Shown one piece after another: positions 13,832 to 44,813 of a DNA stretch of 64,000 nucleotides. Numbering within the stretch: the stretch's first letter is position 1; each line of letters begins with the position of its first letter. The stretch lies in sequence record OK272472.1; one strand, given 5' to 3'. The notes under the pieces were generated by a model. The model had not been told where the DNA came from. It worked only from the letters and a program-made list of their open reading frames with translations, and searched no databases. This stretch comes from Escherichia phage JLBYU28. Position numbers and translations under genes: made by a program.

Positions 13832-14941
13832 TTAGATTTCACGCTTACGTTGGGAGATAAGTTCTCCAGCAGTACCGACGATGACATGTAAAGCTTCAGT
13901 CTTGCCATCCCATGCTTTCAGCACTTTACGTTGATTATCAACGATTGCTGCAACTTCATAACGAGACGAACGCATCTTCATATCGTTGTAATCAGTTGGA
14001 ACAGATACAACATCTCGTGGATGGACACGAACCTTCAGGATTGTATCACCTGAGAAGCAACGAACATAATCCCAAGCACCAACATGAAGACCTTGAGAGC
14101 AAGTCACGTTACGGTTGTTATCAACCATCCAACGTGGCATTTCTACAATGTTACCCAAATCATTAGGTACTTTGTAGGTGTGGGAGTCAACCAGCTTGCC
14201 TTCACGAGTAGAGACTTTCTTCCAACCAATGATGTAGCCTTCTTCATCAATTTCAACATCAAGGTGAGATACGAAGCCCCAAAGTTGTTCTACAGAGTCT
14301 TTAGATGGGTTTTCCATCAGTTTTTCGAAGAACATCACAAGGTGTTCAAAACCCTTATCTCCAGTCTTCATCATGTGAAGAATACGGTCAACCAGAGTAG
14401 AACGCATCTCAACAGCACCGTAGAATAACTTGTCACCTTTGATGGTGATAGCACCCTGAGTGAAGTTTTCGATAGATTTACGAATGTTCATCAGTTCGAA
14501 AGCTTTCTTGTACTCACCGGATACAACAGCCATCACGATTTCTTTGTAGTTCGGATGGGTAGATTCAACGATTTCAGAATCTGCACCAAAAGTCATGATA
14601 ACAGAGTCGCCAGTAATCATGTACTCAATCTGGTCACCATTCTGCATAGCTTCATGCAGTTTATTTACTGGAGCCTTTTGTACAGGCTCTTTAACGACCT
14701 TTTCAACTGGTTTGCCAGCTTTCTTTTTAACTGATTTAGCAACTTGCTTCAAAGTCTTCGTAGCTGGTTTAGAAGCTACCTTTTTCTTGCCTTTTAAGGT
14801 TGCTTCATGACGCTCTACAGCACGACCAACTGAACGGGTTGAAGTATTGAACTTCTGTGCAATCGCTGTTTTAGTCAGCTTACCTTCTTTAACCAGTTCG
14901 TAAATTTCTGCGTCAATCTGTGCTTTAGTTTTAGTAGTCAT
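13832..14941 (-). CDS. rIIB: rIIB-like protein
   Basis: Immediately downstream of the rIIA-like gene; N-terminal HTH-like region and Lys-rich linker; assignment by synteny and size. Confidence 0.5.
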   Translation of the reverse strand: MTTKTKAQIDAEIYELVKEGKLTKTAIAQKFNTSTRSVGRAVERHEATLKGKKKVASKPATKTLKQVAKSVKKKAGKPVEKVVKEPVQKAPVNKLHEAMQNGDQIEYMITGDSVIMTFGADSEIVESTHPNYKEIVMAVVSGEYKKAFELMNIRKSIENFTQGAITIKGDKLFYGAVEMRSTLVDRILHMMKTGDKGFEHLVMFFEKLMENPSKDSVEQLWGFVSHLDVEIDEEGYIIGWKKVSTREGKLVDSHTYKVPNDLGNIVEMPRWMVDNNRNVTCSQGLHVGAWDYVRCFSGDTILKVRVHPRDVVSVPTDYNDMKMRSSRYEVAAIVDNQRKVLKAWDGKTEALHVIVGTAGELISQRKREI

Positions 14942-24021: not shown

Positions 24022-24313
24022 CTAAGCTTACCCCGCTTTATTCAAGCTGCTTACTGTCGCCAGTAAGTCCAGACTATATCTTCTACTTATTTCTAAGTAG
24101 CGTACCATTTCGAGTCGCTTGACCCTACACCGCTACATTCATCACGGTTAGTCGTTCGGCATTTAGATGTATTCAAACTCATATTCGAAGTTATTTGGCA
24201 TGTAAGACTCCTATGTTGTATAGTTTCTTACATCATACACCATTTAGCACAGGATTGTCTACATCTGTAGAGTTTCCCTGTTTAGGCACGTTTTAGATGA
24301 GCTATAGAGCTTG
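24022..24313 (-). other. putative group I intron interrupting nrdD (5' boundary not resolved)
   Basis: Non-coding gap inside a single gene; minus-strand GACUA (in aacgactaacc) and UAGUC (in atatagtctgg) candidates for P7, followed by stem-loops and a terminal G. Confidence 0.55.
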
Positions 24314-25513
24314 TTAACCCATCGGTGAAATTACCTTACCAGAACGCTCAAAAGCCTCTGCTACAGCACCATGACCAGATACACTTAAGAAGTCTGGATA
24401 CATTGCTTTAGAGCAACACTCAATGGCTTTACTGTACAGGTGACCTTGACAAATATTCTCATCATGTCTCTTCTGGTCATAGATATAAACCAGTTTAGGA
24501 AATACAACCGGTTTTTTGCTCTTACCTTGTCCGTTCATACGAACATCTAGGAGAGTACTTGCAATCATATATTGCAGTCGGTTATCTTCATTAGACATAT
24601 CTGAGTCAAGTAACCCGAATGTCAAAGTTGTAAATGCAAAATCCCCACGGCTACAAGGTACGGTATTTAGTTTCATCTCAAGTGACTGAAAACCTTGAGT
24701 CAGTTCAATTTGTAACTGCTCCATTACATAGTTATGGTAATGTTCTTTAGGAATACCGTAAGATGCTGCTTTCTCAGCATGATAGCGTAGAGACTTCTTA
24801 GCATACGGTACAAGCACCTTATCAATCTCTGCTAAAGTAAATCCACCAAATTGCTGTGCAGTTGCTGAAAGAACTACATCACCAATAACCTGTAAGGCTG
24901 ACAGCACAGACTTCGGTTCACAGTATTCAATGCCAGACATTTCAAAGCCACCTTTCAGTACTTTACCGATGTCAAACAGGCAACAGTTGATACCACCAAA
25001 AATTAGGTCTCTTAAGTCATGGATGTAGATAAACCCTTTTTCAATGGCTTCGAGTTCCTCTGGTGTTAAATGGTATTGTTTAAAGATTTCTTTAGTCAGA
25101 TAGCCACGAATAATTGAACCTTTTGTAGAAATTAAACTGCTGTCAAAGTTAGCATTTTCACGGTCACCTAAGAAGAGTGTATCCTTAGTCTTCTGGTAAA
25201 GTTCATCCCAATTTTGAGCAACCTCTTTACGGTAATTTCTATACGTTGAGTAAGACTCATAAATCTCGTGATTGACTTCTGCCAAAGCACCCTCAACAAT
25301 ACTGTGAATATCATTTACTGAAACGAGTAAATTATTCTGCTTAGTAGATTTTACCAGAATCCTCATAAATGCTGACTCAAGAGCTTGAGTAACATCTGGT
25401 GGAAGCTCTTTATAACCAACTCTGTTAGCTGACTTTGTGACTGCTGCTAAAACTTTTTTGATATCAGGTTCTTCGAGTGAGCCATTCTTTTTAATAATCT
25501 GTACTTTGTTCAT
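24314..25513 (-). CDS. nrdD: anaerobic ribonucleoside-triphosphate reductase NrdD, 5' exon (ORF as seen; true splice donor lies upstream of the in-frame stop)
   Basis: N-terminal ATP-cone-like region; same protein as the downstream exon. Confidence 0.75.
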   Translation of the reverse strand: MNKVQIIKKNGSLEEPDIKKVLAAVTKSANRVGYKELPPDVTQALESAFMRILVKSTKQNNLLVSVNDIHSIVEGALAEVNHEIYESYSTYRNYRKEVAQNWDELYQKTKDTLFLGDRENANFDSSLISTKGSIIRGYLTKEIFKQYHLTPEELEAIEKGFIYIHDLRDLIFGGINCCLFDIGKVLKGGFEMSGIEYCEPKSVLSALQVIGDVVLSATAQQFGGFTLAEIDKVLVPYAKKSLRYHAEKAASYGIPKEHYHNYVMEQLQIELTQGFQSLEMKLNTVPCSRGDFAFTTLTFGLLDSDMSNEDNRLQYMIASTLLDVRMNGQGKSKKPVVFPKLVYIYDQKRHDENICQGHLYSKAIECCSKAMYPDFLSVSGHGAVAEAFERSGKVISPMG

Positions 25514-38694: not shown

Positions 38695-40837
38695 ATGGAA
38701 AACGTAGATTTTAAAAACTTACATTTAGTTGGTGATACAGAAACTGATGGTTTACTCCTTGAGTTCACTAAAGTTCACGTAATGGCCTTTGCAGACTATA
38801 AATCTGACGATGAAGAGCCACCTGTATGGGTCTTTACAGATGAGCCTATCCTCGGTCACAAGTACACCAAGTACATTAAGGGTGGCTTACGTGAAGGTAT
38901 TGAGTTTGCGTTAAAGGCAAAACGTCTTTGCATCCACAACGGTCTCGGTTATGACTGGTGGGTTTTCAATCACATTGCACCTGATTTATGGAACTTTGAT
39001 AATCCAAAGTGTAAACCGTGGAGTAATTTCTTTCAGGATTCTCTTATCCAGTCTCGTGTTCAGTGGATGGATAGACCAACTCCAAAGGGTTATAAAGGTG
39101 CTCATGGTTTGGCTGCATGGGGTGCTCGTGTTGGTGTTCGTAAACCAGAGATTGAACATTGGGGTGTATGGAATGCAGAAATCTTCACTCGTGTTGTAGA
39201 AGATATACGTATTAACGCCAAAACTAAACGTGCACTTGATAACGAGTATCTCAAGCTTAAGAAGTGTGGCATAGACACTTATGAAACCTACATGCGAGCT
39301 AAAGAGACATCTTTCTGGATGAGCCAGCAAGCTATTAATGGCTGGAAAGCTGATAAAGAGCTTATGGAGTTCCATGTAAAGGAACTTGACAAGTTGACTA
39401 ATGAGCTTGCTTCAGAGGTTGAACCACATCTACCTCCAACTATTAAGACCAAAGGTAAAGTCACTGGAGAAGAGTTTGCAAAAGCTTGGAATGAGTATGT
39501 TGAAACATTTGGTCATGCAGATGGACTGAAGAGGATTACCAAGTATCCTAAGACAAAGTATCGTCAACAGGTGCGTAACGGTGAGATGCAGACATACGAA
39601 ATCAAGCCATTTGGTAAGCCAACTACAAAGATTTTTAACATTGAAAAGAGAAATTGCTATACACCAACCAACTCTGTAACTGGTGAAGAGTACAAGGAAG
39701 GTTTTGTAGCAATGAAGGATGCTCGTGCAATTTGCAATGAGTTGAATGCAAAGATTGGTAAGAAATGCAAAGACTGGAAGCCAGTAAAAACAGTCAAAAC
39801 TGTGAAGTACTATAACAGCCACGTTGTTAACCACTTTGAACTTGAGTCAAGTCGCTACACAGGATTGATTGATGCACCATATACACCAATTGAGTTTGAA
39901 GTTTCTCGTATGACTCAGGTAGCAGTTGTAAAAGACTACTTGAAATCAGTTGGTTGGATTCCAGATGACTGGAACTACAAGAAAGACTCAGACGGTCGCC
40001 CTGTCAAAGTTTGTCGTTTCAAAGACAATAAAAAGATGATTACAAAACATCCTAAGTGGCAGGAGATGGTTGAGCGGTGTGGTTTGAGCTATGTTGAGCA
40101 CGAAGGTGTACAGTATATCGAGCATAACTGGTCTGTGAAGAAGTACACAGATTTGCTTGAATCTTGCTTAATCCGTACTTCACCAAAACTTACTGAGTCA
40201 TCTTATGATACGATTGAAGGTGAACTTGGACAGAAGATTGCAAAGTACTATACTTTGATGCACCGACGCAGAACTATTGAGAACTCAAAGGATGATGAAA
40301 AAGGTTGGTTGAACCAGATTCGTCCTGATGGTCGCCTTAGTGCTGGTGCAATGGTGTTTGGTACTTCAACTGGACGTATGACACAATATGGTATTGTAAA
40401 CGTACCGTCTGGTGCTGCTGTCTATGGAGCACCTATGAGGGAGGTTTGGATTTGCGAGGAAGGGACTAATATCGTTTCAGTTGACCAGAACTCTGCACAG
40501 CTTGTTTTACTGTGTAACTTTATGGGTGATAAAGAGTTCACTAAAGCGGTAACTGAAGGTAAAGAGTCAGTAGAATTTACCAAGCGAGAAGATGGGAGGT
40601 ATTATTGCAAACATCTTGATAAGTACCTTAATCCAGAAACTGATAAGTATCTTCGTTATGATGCTGAGAATGACCTCTATGAAGTCTACACAGGGACTGA
40701 TGCGCATACACTGAATAGTATTTACTTTGGTCTTAACAAAGAAGAGGATATTGTTCATTGCAGGGAGACACAGGATGAGGAACTTCTCCACGAGATTACA
40801 AAAGGTCGTAAGAAAGCCAAAAATGGCATTTATGCGT
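38695..40837 (+). CDS. DNA polymerase (family A), exon 1
   Basis: 3'-5' exonuclease Exo I motif LVGDTETDG; motif B begins RKKAKNGIYA before the frame is interrupted; ATG at 38695 with GAGGGAG SD. Confidence 0.8.
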
Positions 40838-41105
40838 CAGTGGCGCATGTAAAACGTTGTGAATTGCTGGAAGCCTAAGTCTGTAAAGATATGGTAATCA
40901 GCAGCGAAGCCTCTTAAGAGGAACGTTCAGAGACTATCGAAAAGCATACTTAATGTATGAACTGAGTAGAGTAGGGTGGTAAGCTAATGACCATTCCCAA
41001 GTGCAACGGTAGTATTACTACTACGTGATATAGTCCGACACTCCGTAGAAATGCGGAGAAGTTCATAAGAGAACTGGTACACCTTGCGAGTGTATTGACC
41101 AGATG
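40838..41105 (+). other. group I intron (268 nt) in DNA polymerase motif B
   Basis: 7-bp P1 between exon end UAUGCGU (40831-40837) and intron GCGCAUG (40843-40849) with U-G at the splice site; GACUA/UAGUC P7 candidates; terminal G at 41105; splicing restores AKNGIYALLFGAGDEK. Confidence 0.7.
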
Positions 41106-41665: not shown

Positions 41666-42199
41666 ATGGATTTTATTTCACAAAAACGTTTAAAGGAGCT
41701 ACTACACTATGACCCCGAAACAGGGGTCTTTACTTGGCTTCGTAGAGAAGGTAAATCAAGAGCTGTTAGTGTTTTTAACAGTAACTATGCAGGAAAGGTA
41801 GCAGGTAATGTTCAGACAGATTCAACTGGTCATAAACAGATTAGTATCTATTTTGACAAGAAAGCACATAAAGCACACAGACTCGCATGGCTTTATGTAT
41901 ATGGCAAGATGCCAAAAGGTATCATTGACCATATCAACGGAGACTCTCTTGACAACAGGATTGTAAACTTAAGGGAAGCAGATGATTTTCAAAGTGCTTG
42001 GAATAAAGGTAAACCAGTCACCAATAAATCTGGGTACAAAGGTGTAAGTCTTAAGAAGAAGTCTGGTAAGTGGGTCGCACAGATAAGTTATAAAGGTAAG
42101 AAGATGTTTTTAGGTCACCATGACACGCCTGAAGAAGCCCATAAAGATTACTGTGAAGCTGCTATGAAACTCCACGGAGAGTTTGCAAAACTAAGTTGA
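41666..42199 (+). CDS. HNH homing endonuclease with AP2 DNA-binding domain
   Basis: HNH block IDHINGDSLDNRIVNLREA; AP2-like GYKGVSLKKKSGKWVAQISYKGKKMFLGHHDTPEEAHKDY. Confidence 0.8.
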   Translation: MDFISQKRLKELLHYDPETGVFTWLRREGKSRAVSVFNSNYAGKVAGNVQTDSTGHKQISIYFDKKAHKAHRLAWLYVYGKMPKGIIDHINGDSLDNRIVNLREADDFQSAWNKGKPVTNKSGYKGVSLKKKSGKWVAQISYKGKKMFLGHHDTPEEAHKDYCEAAMKLHGEFAKLS

Positions 42200-42684: not shown

Positions 42685-42891
42685 ATGGAAGTCTTAGTAA
42701 ACTATATCTATTGTTATGATGTTGTTCACTCCACTACAACCGTAGCTCAACGTAACCCAATCGTCCCACGAGAAGGTGAGTTTGTTCGCATTGATGGTTG
42801 TACTTACACTGTGGAAAGCATCATTCATAAGTTTGATGTTGCTGGTGATGTTCAAGTTATCGACGTAGAGATTGGTGGTAAGAGAAAATGA
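42685..42891 (+). CDS. hypothetical small protein (68 aa)
   Basis: ORF in track. Confidence 0.45.
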   Translation: MEVLVNYIYCYDVVHSTTTVAQRNPIVPREGEFVRIDGCTYTVESIIHKFDVAGDVQVIDVEIGGKRK

Positions 42892-43991
42892 CAATTCTGT
42901 ACAAACAAAATAAAGATGGTTCCTTCAACGTCTGGTCATGTGTCGCTATAGGTAACAAAGTTATCACAACCTATGGTAAAGAAAATGGCAAGATGATGTT
43001 TGAAGAGTATACAGCAGAACCTAAAAACATTGGTAAAAAGAATGAGCGTAACGCTGAACAGCAAGCTCTCTTTGAAGTTGCTGCAAAGTATAAAAAGCAG
43101 GTTGACCGCAAAGGTTATGCTTACACAAAAGAGTCTGCACAGAATACTGAGAAAGTAGGTGTACAGCTTGCTCATGATGCTGCAAAGGTTAGCCATGCAA
43201 AGTATCTGAAGTTCCCTGCTGATGCTCAACCGAAGCTTGATGGTGTACGTTGTAGAATTTCAAGACACTTAAGCATTGGTAGCGTATTCACAGCATACTC
43301 TCGTGAGAATACTGTTTATAAAATCCCTACTGAACTCATACCTGACATTATGGCAATGTTAAGGCTCCACAAAGATGTTGATGAGTTTGATGGAGAGATT
43401 TATGCTCATGGGTGGGACTTAGAAGATATCGTCTCTATGATTAAAAATGAAGACAATCCTGACAGACACTCACTTAAGTTCTACTGGTATGATATCTGTG
43501 ACAGCACTAAGACGTGGCCTGAGCGTAGAGATATCATTGAGACCTCACCATTGAATGACTTTAGAGATGGCTGTAAAGTTGTCCCTGTTAAGTCTCGTCG
43601 TGTAAATTCTTGGGAAGAGTTTGATGAAGCCCATGATAAGTGGGTTGAAGCTAAGTTTGAAGGTGCAATGTACCGTTCAATCTCTGAAGACTCCTTCTAT
43701 GAGTGTTGTCACCGTTCATACTTCTTGATTAAGCACAAGAAGATGCACACTGAAGAGTTTAAAGTGACTGGTGTAAAGACCGATAAACGTGGTCATGGCA
43801 AGTTCGTTGTAGAGACTCTTCCTAACGTCTTTGTAGATGTCTCATGGAAGACTACTCATGAGAAGAAACAGTATCTTGCTGAACATCCTGAAGAGTTTAT
43901 CGGGAAACCTTTAACTGTTCAGTTCCAGAAGATGACTCGTAAGGGTTCTTTACAGTTTCCTGTCGGGCTAGTTATTAGGGATTATGAGTAA
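42888..43991 (+). CDS. ATP-dependent DNA ligase
   Basis: Adenylation motif I KLDGVR (PKLDGVRCRI); ~370 aa. Confidence 0.7.
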   Translation: MTILYKQNKDGSFNVWSCVAIGNKVITTYGKENGKMMFEEYTAEPKNIGKKNERNAEQQALFEVAAKYKKQVDRKGYAYTKESAQNTEKVGVQLAHDAAKVSHAKYLKFPADAQPKLDGVRCRISRHLSIGSVFTAYSRENTVYKIPTELIPDIMAMLRLHKDVDEFDGEIYAHGWDLEDIVSMIKNEDNPDRHSLKFYWYDICDSTKTWPERRDIIETSPLNDFRDGCKVVPVKSRRVNSWEEFDEAHDKWVEAKFEGAMYRSISEDSFYECCHRSYFLIKHKKMHTEEFKVTGVKTDKRGHGKFVVETLPNVFVDVSWKTTHEKKQYLAEHPEEFIGKPLTVQFQKMTRKGSLQFPVGLVIRDYE

Positions 43992-43994
43992 ACT

Positions 43995-44141
43995 ATGTTA
44001 AGCACAATCATTCTGTTTGCATTAGTTGTCTTTGTATTGTCATACGTTGCAAGTAAGCTTTTGGACACATCTTTTGCAATGGGTGTCTTGTTTACAATCT
44101 TTTGTTTCGTGACACATATAGCTATCAGAACTTTTTTATAA
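43995..44141 (+). CDS. small hydrophobic membrane protein (48 aa; below track threshold)
   Basis: Hand translation MLSTIILFALVVFVLSYVASKLLDTSFAMGVLFTIFCFVTHIAIRTFL. Confidence 0.35.
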   Translation: MLSTIILFALVVFVLSYVASKLLDTSFAMGVLFTIFCFVTHIAIRTFL

Positions 44142-44146
44142 AAAGT

Positions 44147-44175
44147 TGTTGACATAGAAAATTTGGTGAGTATAC
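44147..44175 (+). promoter_or_regulatory. sigma70-like promoter TTGACA-N16-TATACT
   Basis: Exact -35 consensus and 5/6 -10 match; followed by ~200 nt ORF-free structured sequence. Confidence 0.5.
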
Positions 44176-44429
44176 TGAGCAGCATAAACCAACTGGTACT
44201 CACCAGCATCACTTAAGAGTCTTCTAAGAGGGTTTTTAAGTGATGTCTAGTCAGGTACAGTACGGCTAGGTTGGGTCTGGTAAGGTCAGGTATGGTTTGG
44301 TATGGAAGGATGGCAGTAGCCTTATAAAAAATCTGCCAAATAAGCTATAAAGTCTGTTGACAAGTCAGGTGTTATAGCTTATTTTTATACCCAATGTAAT
44401 ACAAAATTTAATATAACTTTGAGGTCATT

Positions 44430-44813
44430 ATGAAAAAGATTTTATTAGCTGCTGCAATGGTTATGGCAATGAATTTACCAGTCAATGCAACAGAACTTCC
44501 AAATGTGGACTTATCAGGTGTTCCAGAAGACACTTGCCAGATTGTAAAAGGTGTTGCTCTGGCTAATGGTGAGTTACTTAAACCAATCTCTGAAGAGTCT
44601 TTGACAGAGATGACCGATAAGGTGACTGACTATCAGTATCGTGTTCTTGCAGAGTATTTCCTACAATCTGCAAATATTAAAGAGAAACACCATGATGATA
44701 TTGATGTACAGGCTATGCTCAACCATCGTATCCAGTTTAAAGAAGATTTGATGCAAAAAGCTATGTACGGTGTTGAATATTTCTTAGAAAACAGAAGCTG
44801 CACAGGTATTTGA
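44430..44813 (+). CDS. secreted protein with signal peptide (127 aa)
   Basis: N-terminus MKKILLAAAMVMAMNLPVNA. Confidence 0.55.
   Translation: MKKILLAAAMVMAMNLPVNATELPNVDLSGVPEDTCQIVKGVALANGELLKPISEESLTEMTDKVTDYQYRVLAEYFLQSANIKEKHHDDIDVQAMLNHRIQFKEDLMQKAMYGVEYFLENRSCTGI

Follow-up and report, generated by a model that had tools for sequence, protein, structure and literature searches.

VIPR systems and their guide RNAs

VIPR (Viral Interference Programmable Repeat) is the subject of two 2026 bioRxiv preprints. They describe an RNA-guided system for DNA recognition and silencing that is related to CRISPR and may predate it (10.64898/2026.04.26.720920, 10.64898/2026.04.26.720927). Its protein component is Vipr, a RAMP-like protein of ~20 kDa that forms filaments on the guide, which is called vrRNA. 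A vrRNA is ~100 nt long, with 9-16 YNNGG repeats and, after them, an invariant tail (10.64898/2026.04.26.720920, 10.64898/2026.04.26.720927). The outcome is transcriptional silencing of competing phages or satellites, and no self-targeting is found in the VIPR systems that the preprints cover (10.64898/2026.04.26.720920, 10.64898/2026.04.26.720927).

The closest described relative of the locus considered here is that of SUSP1. Its vrRNAs are ~100 nt by small-RNA sequencing and co-purify with Vipr (10.64898/2026.04.26.720920). Each repeat is bound by one Vipr protomer and its GGY is sequestered, whereas NN pairs with double-stranded DNA, on either strand and with no PAM, in such a way that every third target base is skipped (10.64898/2026.04.26.720920, 10.64898/2026.04.26.720927). 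The tail of SUSP1-clade vrRNAs is a 3' pseudoknot that was predicted and later resolved by cryo-EM, in a sample in which SUSP1 vrRNA1 has 12 repeats. The guides of this clade are mostly directed against a satellite phage, and a small accessory gene, vap1, comes after vipr (10.64898/2026.04.26.720920, 10.64898/2026.04.26.720927). The order of the SUSP1 locus is ligase, vrRNA1, vipr (agp039), vap1 (agp038), three vrRNAs and a homolog of a 127-aa gene discussed below.

A probable orphan vrRNA gene in phage JLBYU28

The DNA analysed here is a stretch of 64,000 nt (64 kb) from phage JLBYU28, referred to as the window. It is Felix O1-like (Felixounavirus, Ounavirinae), and the closest complete genome over 20 kb is that of Salmonella phage pSJ21 (95%). 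The element of interest lies between the DNA ligase gene (42888-43991) and the 127-aa gene, and all of the genes around it are on the + strand in the ORF list. A 601-nt query around the interval matches 260 phage records, mostly with 90-95% identity. The features are as follows.

43995-44141 (+): 48-aa hydrophobic ORF (phrog_22006, E=1e-32), a neighbour outside the VIPR element
44149-44176 (+): promoter P1, TTGACA-N16-TATACT, a near-consensus sigma-70 promoter with 11/12 consensus positions
44165-44172 / 44197-44204 (+): first inverted repeat, GGTGAGTA / TACTCACC, from an inverted-repeat scan
44207-44225 / 44227-44245 (+): hairpin H, 19-nt arms forming ~17-19 bp including G-U pairs
44246-44305 (+): vrRNA guide tract of 12 tandem in-phase YNNGG units, from a period-5 scan
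44306-44338 (+): invariant 3' tail, an H-type pseudoknot recognized by compensatory changes
44306-44309 / 44320-44323: pseudoknot stem S1, AAGG / CCTT
44311-44316 / 44333-44338: pseudoknot stem S2, TGGCAG / CTGCCA
44338-44389 (+): terminator-like hairpin with perfect 13-bp arms (44338-44350 / 44372-44384), then TTTTTATA
44357-44385 (+): promoter-like P2, for the 127-aa gene, in the loop and 3' arm of the 13-bp inverted repeat
44430-44813 (+): 127-aa gene with a signal-peptide-like N terminus (phrog_4332)

Very probably, 44149-44389 constitutes one vrRNA gene belonging to the SUSP1/type II clade, whose effector genes have been lost. An earlier note on this DNA took the strong promoter to drive either a small non-coding RNA or a long regulatory leader. 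That proposal is supported in kind, with the element being a homolog of the SUSP1 vrRNA genes. In other words, on sequence grounds the element is an orphan member of an already described, very new family, that of the VIPR vrRNAs. There is no tRNA or tmRNA in the interval, and no Rfam covariance model matches it at the gathering score, with only noise (E>1) at a permissive threshold.

The comparison with SUSP1 is informative. The locus is the same, from ligase to the 127-aa gene, and both the window array and SUSP1 vrRNA1 have 12 units. Almost base for base, P1, the first inverted repeat and hairpin H are the same as what precedes vrRNA1 in SUSP1. The tail, the 13-bp-arm hairpin and P2 agree just as closely with what ends and follows the last SUSP1 vrRNA. 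However, SUSP1 has four vrRNAs together with vipr and vap, whereas the window has one vrRNA and neither gene. The NN sets of the two also differ; that of the window is common only to a few Salmonella phages (the BPS17W1 group, 95%).

How might the element work? Host RNA polymerase would initiate at P1, and the leader hairpins would be removed from the transcript. The product would be an RNA of ~95-100 nt with 12 YNNGG repeats (44246-44305) capped by the 3' pseudoknot (44306-44338), and the hairpin at 44338-44384 would terminate transcription or bound the RNA. If Vipr were present, a filament of the SUSP1 type could form, presenting NN to double-stranded DNA and blocking transcription of a competitor. 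Because the vipr-vap cassette is absent, the vrRNA alone should be inert. It would be active only with Vipr supplied in trans.

The YNNGG guide tract

The NN dinucleotides of units 1-12 are CT, CA, AC, AC, TA, TG, CT, AA, CA, AT, TT and AT. Y is present in 12/12 units and GG in 10/12, with units 1 and 3 having AG in its place. GT or GG occupies 9/10 consecutive period-5 positions; elsewhere in the 64 kb, on either strand, the maximum is five. The GGT-rich short repeats noticed previously are therefore real and far above chance, and they form a strict period-5 array that is unique in the window. Indeed, no copies of the repeat are found elsewhere in the window.

An alignment of 25 related loci reveals flanks that are ~100% identical and a GGY that is kept every five bases, with hypervariable NN. 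Among 849 Felixounavirus units, the second position is G in 99% and the third is a pyrimidine in 92%, whereas the fourth and fifth are near random. The commonest array length in Felixounavirus is 12-13 units. Relatives have from one to five arrays at the locus, on the transcribed strand in every case. When close pairs of phages with vipr are compared, 24/34 substitutions fall in NN. The functional core of the element is the period-5 GGY/NN tract together with the pseudoknot tail, not the two hairpins.

Promoter P1 and the leader hairpins

P1 is the sole + strand site in the 64-kb window that matches at least 11/12 consensus positions. There are nine such sites on both strands, versus a mean of 3.2 in shuffles. 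The consensus promoter claimed in the earlier note is borne out by the 11/12 match, but it lies at 44149-44176 rather than at 44147-44175. The predicted transcription start is at ~44183-44184. The P1 sequence is also present upstream of SUSP1 vrRNA1, and P1 and the leader are found with at least 90% identity in 230 phage records.

Both of the inverted repeats reported before are present. The 5' arm of the first one overlaps the -10 hexamer of P1, so the hairpin cannot form in RNA initiated there. It forms only in read-through RNA from upstream. When junction sequences are aligned, this repeat falls opposite the tail hairpin that internal vrRNA units have, and on that basis it looks like a degenerate tail. 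The second, ATCACTTAA/TTAAGTGAT, is part of hairpin H. Successive vrRNA units in relatives are separated by a related hairpin (H or H'), which occurs between all tandem units. The mature SUSP1 RNAs consist of repeats and tail, and hairpin H has therefore probably been cut away. It is probably a processing or insulating element that is absent from the mature RNA. Hairpin H is a predicted terminator in the annotation of phage ASO1A, yet there is no U tract after it. Folding of the region is more stable than that of shuffles (z ~ -3.5).

The pseudoknot tail, the downstream hairpin and P2

Across the four tail classes of the relatives, S1 and S2 are paired in 100% of cells, compared with 23-50% when the partners are slid. 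There are six pairs with double-sided changes, three in each of two tail alignments.

The 44338-44384 hairpin is AT-rich, and TTTTTATA comes after it. A scan of the + strand for consensus terminators calls neither this hairpin nor hairpin H. The terminal tail and the terminator-like hairpin are present in 230 phage records and are 95-100% identical in 229/230 of them. An identical terminator-like hairpin follows the last vrRNA of SUSP1. The second promoter-like element that had been noticed ahead of the gene at 44430 is also present (P2). The -35 of P2 lies between the two arms of the perfect 13-bp inverted repeat. This repeat could be an operator, or it could couple termination of the vrRNA to initiation at the next gene.

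The Vipr family beside the arrays

A search of viral contigs with a pattern of seven GGTNN units matched more than 120, from very different environments. Many of these have the same complex type of array, often with several in tandem and a short constant linker. Candidate partners were sought by clustering the ORFs within 4 kb of the arrays at 56 unrelated viral loci with complex arrays. A single family of ~180-205 aa is present in 35/56 of these loci. Its members are nearly always on the strand of the array and 0-80 nt from it. The Felixounavirus member is a 200-aa ORF between the arrays in the longer loci (1064-1666 in L019).

The family of ~200 aa belongs to phrog_4652, where its function is listed as unknown, and neither Vipr nor Vap has a Pfam or PADLOC match. 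A profile of 40 family members against the PDB finds one entry, 36pp "SUSP1 Vipr protein" (E=5.9e-80). Aligned with 36pp, the protein from Felixounavirus is near-identical from end to end (E=1.2e-127). The contact residues named in the preprint, H17, K33, R39, R138, D177 and R179, are invariant or nearly so in the 40-sequence alignment. The predicted structure of Vipr has a pLDDT of 95.7.

No member of the Vipr family is found within 4 kb at 21/56 of the complex-array loci (BLASTP 1e-5). These loci could have other Vipr types, they could be truncated by the ends of their contigs, or they could represent additional orphan guides.

Viral contigs from metagenomes commonly have GGY/NN arrays (IMG/VR, L027-L146). 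Examples are L036 3396-3843, L046 2217-3406, L124 3233-4394, L080 1845-2134 and 2950-3309, and L131 7674-8257. Some far exceed the 9-16 units per vrRNA given in the preprint: runs of 41-61 units stay in phase, and as many as 18 calls overlap at one locus. Long or overlapping arrays of this kind may be what the preprint calls "staggered/overlapping" arrays. Others have very short constant linkers (GGCAGG, GGCTAATG and GGCAGTTAY). In two cases, L049 ~14807-14934 (-) and L140 734-870, the array runs into a tRNA-like T arm sequence, GGTTCGATTCC. This suggests a vrRNA that adjoins, or is fused to, a tRNA gene.

Apparent loss of vipr and vap, and a possibly recombinant array

There is no tblastn match to vipr (~195 aa) or vap (vap1, 146 aa) in the 64-kb window. 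The same is true of the complete pSJ21 genome, which has one array at the same locus. The window corresponds to the whole pSJ21 map minus ~22 kb of structural, tRNA and lysis genes, and the absence of vipr from that part of the JLBYU28 genome rests on synteny with pSJ21. Vipr is found with at least 90% identity in 118 related phage records, in one place in each. The absence also rests on the gene being single-copy in every record that has it and at the ligase locus in those examined (L019, wV8 and SUSP1). In SUSP1, and in about half of the Felix O1-like records, the first vrRNA unit is separated from the last by the vipr-vap cassette.

How common are orphans? With 230 records of the module and 118 with Vipr, about half would be orphans if the sets nest; the P1, tail and vipr counts were compared as totals, by count subtraction. 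By these counts, orphan vrRNAs with promoter, pseudoknot and terminator-like hairpin appear to be kept in approximately half of the Felix O1-like records and approximately three quarters of the Salmonella-phage records. Among the module records, vipr is kept by 77/114 Escherichia phages versus 17/75 Salmonella phages, the hosts being tallied from the first word of the organism name. Apparently there is a host-linked bias, with vipr lost preferentially in Salmonella-infecting lineages.

Units 1-2 of the array agree with the terminal array in L012, whereas units 3-12 agree with L015/BPS17W1 except for two substitutions. Judged by these matches, the window array looks recombinant, as though the guide had arisen when two arrays recombined in register. 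The single array of the window would then be a chimera of two array types, and in-register recombination between vrRNA modules might have deleted vipr-vap and left the hybrid array behind.

A live guide, a relic or a decoy?

Orphan CRISPR arrays and virus-borne mini-arrays exist without cas genes. As in the window, a guide locus has been kept without an effector in cis, and the question of use in trans versus relic is alike. However, CRISPR has repeat-spacer units whereas VIPR has a pentamer GGY/NN code, and the effector family and the recognition rule (1-nt skip, no PAM) also differ.

What if the region is kept solely as regulatory DNA? In this scenario a cassette of promoter, terminator and insulator would serve the ligase operon and the 127-aa gene, and the tract would be a decaying relic. 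This is a serious possibility, to which we would give somewhat less than an even chance. The architecture fits, with P1 and P2 flanking the tract and P2 lying inside the terminator-like hairpin. It also fits that the flanks (95-100%) are better conserved than the tract, that about half of the records, by count subtraction, and most of the Salmonella phages are without vipr (17/75 keep it), and that 3/12 units in the window are without a canonical G1 or otherwise atypical, with more in pSJ21. However, a degenerate G1 is equally common in the last vrRNA of SUSP1, which does have vipr. The sampled orphans have 11-17 in-phase units each and no frame-breaking indel, which speaks against a relic. 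Furthermore, complete deletion of a relic would be expected in some of the lineages that keep P1. By counts, 230/230 of the P1 records appear to keep a tail, and universal retention of the tail is not predicted by simple neutral decay.

Alternatively, the orphan vrRNA might work in trans. It would be loaded by the Vipr of a co-infecting Ounavirinae phage with vipr, a prophage or a satellite, and a competitor of the phage would be silenced. This strikes us as unlikely, although the evidence points both ways. Nothing is broken in the promoter, the 12 in-phase units, the pseudoknot or the terminator-like hairpin, and the record counts suggest that the tail is kept wherever P1 is kept. A recent deletion could also explain this intactness. 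In two close pairs of phages without vipr, 0/8 substitutions affect the invariant G2 and 4/4 changes of Y are from pyrimidine to pyrimidine, but two pairs make a tiny sample. GG integrity is 0.73 in arrays without vipr and 0.79 in arrays with it. There are hosts common to relatives with and without vipr, and the preprint reports that satellites sometimes have vrRNAs of their own (10.64898/2026.04.26.720920, 10.64898/2026.04.26.720927).

Against a role in trans, target searches with exact patterns of 9-10 units under the 1-nt skip rule gave only chance-level matches; a natural target would be expected to match at least 80% of NN. The searches covered IMG/VR, metagenomes and the GTDB representative genomes, and in no case does the match continue into the units on either side. 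The one recurrent 1-nt-skip match is in a low-GC gut bacterium and has poor flanking matches. There is no self-target of the guide in the window, where the best match (17/24) equals the mean of the permutation null. The vrRNA flanks do not occur in the complete genomes of E. coli, which also counts against a role in trans, and no satellite was located in that way.

A third idea is an anti-VIPR sponge: the orphan RNA would be a decoy, titrating the Vipr that competing phages or satellites make. The strong promoter would suit such a role, and the RNA is predicted to bind Vipr because the GGY repeats and the pseudoknot scaffold are intact. Conflict between VIPR systems also exists, since vrRNAs that target other VIPR systems are reported in the preprint. 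However, one RNA with 12 units is a weak sponge and a decoy has no need of hypervariable NN. A decoy is very improbable. The broader proposal, that the orphan vrRNAs are not relics but act in trans, either borrowing or jamming Vipr from a co-infecting phage or a satellite, is unlikely, though less so. If it is true, trans-acting orphan vrRNAs would amount to guide-only participation in VIPR warfare.

Finally, the array might not be a guide RNA at all. Sites for TRAP, in Bacillus trp leaders, have 11 (G/U)AG triplets with spacers of 2-3 nt. Like the vrRNA, they combine period-5 triplets, one protein subunit per repeat and non-conserved spacers. However, TRAP binds NAG triplets as an 11-mer ring, whereas VIPR has GGY triplets and a helical RAMP filament, and the vrRNA "spacers", unlike those of TRAP, carry information because NN reads DNA. 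It is scarcely credible that the array is a TRAP-like ring-protein site (suggested by 11-13 triplets at 2-nt spacing), a G-quadruplex/R-loop-prone origin (a G-rich non-template strand behind a strong promoter), a recombination hotspot (the array flanks an optional gene cassette) or an antisense Rho rut site, given that arrays co-occur with Vipr and that the published structures account directly for the GGY/NN periodicity. A TRAP site was rejected because the triplet is GGY rather than (G/U)AG and the associated protein is Vipr. A rut site was rejected because the invariant antisense positions are RC, not the YC that Rho prefers. A G-quadruplex is made less likely by the variability of the first G. 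All four readings were abandoned when the arrays proved to be associated with Vipr.

The orphan vrRNA gene of the window is not mentioned in the Felix O1, UAB_Phi87 and PhageMaP papers. Promoter-equipped, intact guides without Vipr, apparently present in a large fraction of Felix O1-like phages, are likewise absent from the preprint text that was searched. Such orphan guides are a natural test set for function in trans, for the generation of new guides and for the loss of vipr in Salmonella lineages. VIPR guide genes can evidently be detected by a reader from sequence alone.

Neighbouring genes and other features of the window

The 48-aa hydrophobic ORF at 43995-44141 that had been pointed out upstream of P1 is real, as judged by its match to phrog_22006. 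It is present in only some relatives and is missing in L003, L009 and L017, in which the ligase stop directly abuts the promoter. On the right, the VIPR locus has the 127-aa gene as a conserved neighbour, also outside the element, and its SUSP1 homolog, agp037, is in the equivalent position. Among relatives, 270-2129 nt separate ligase from the 127-aa gene.

In the pSJ21 record, a small hypothetical CDS is annotated at 79976-80125 (-), which corresponds to ~43982-44212 (-) of the window. It is roughly opposite the conserved + strand ORF of 48 aa. This minus-strand annotation opposite the phrog_22006 ORF is probably on the wrong strand.

The window also contains two group I introns above the Rfam gathering score, at 40775-41058 (+) and 24050-24400 (-). 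In the matching regions of pSJ21, DNA polymerase and anaerobic ribonucleotide reductase are both split, and genes for HNH homing endonucleases lie nearby. Approximately 0.6 kb downstream of the intron at 40775-41058, a 177-aa ORF at 41666-42199 (+) has, by eye, the look of an HNH/AP2-type homing endonuclease. In the region of pSJ21 taken as syntenic, an "HNH endonuclease motif containing protein" follows the second piece of the DNA polymerase.
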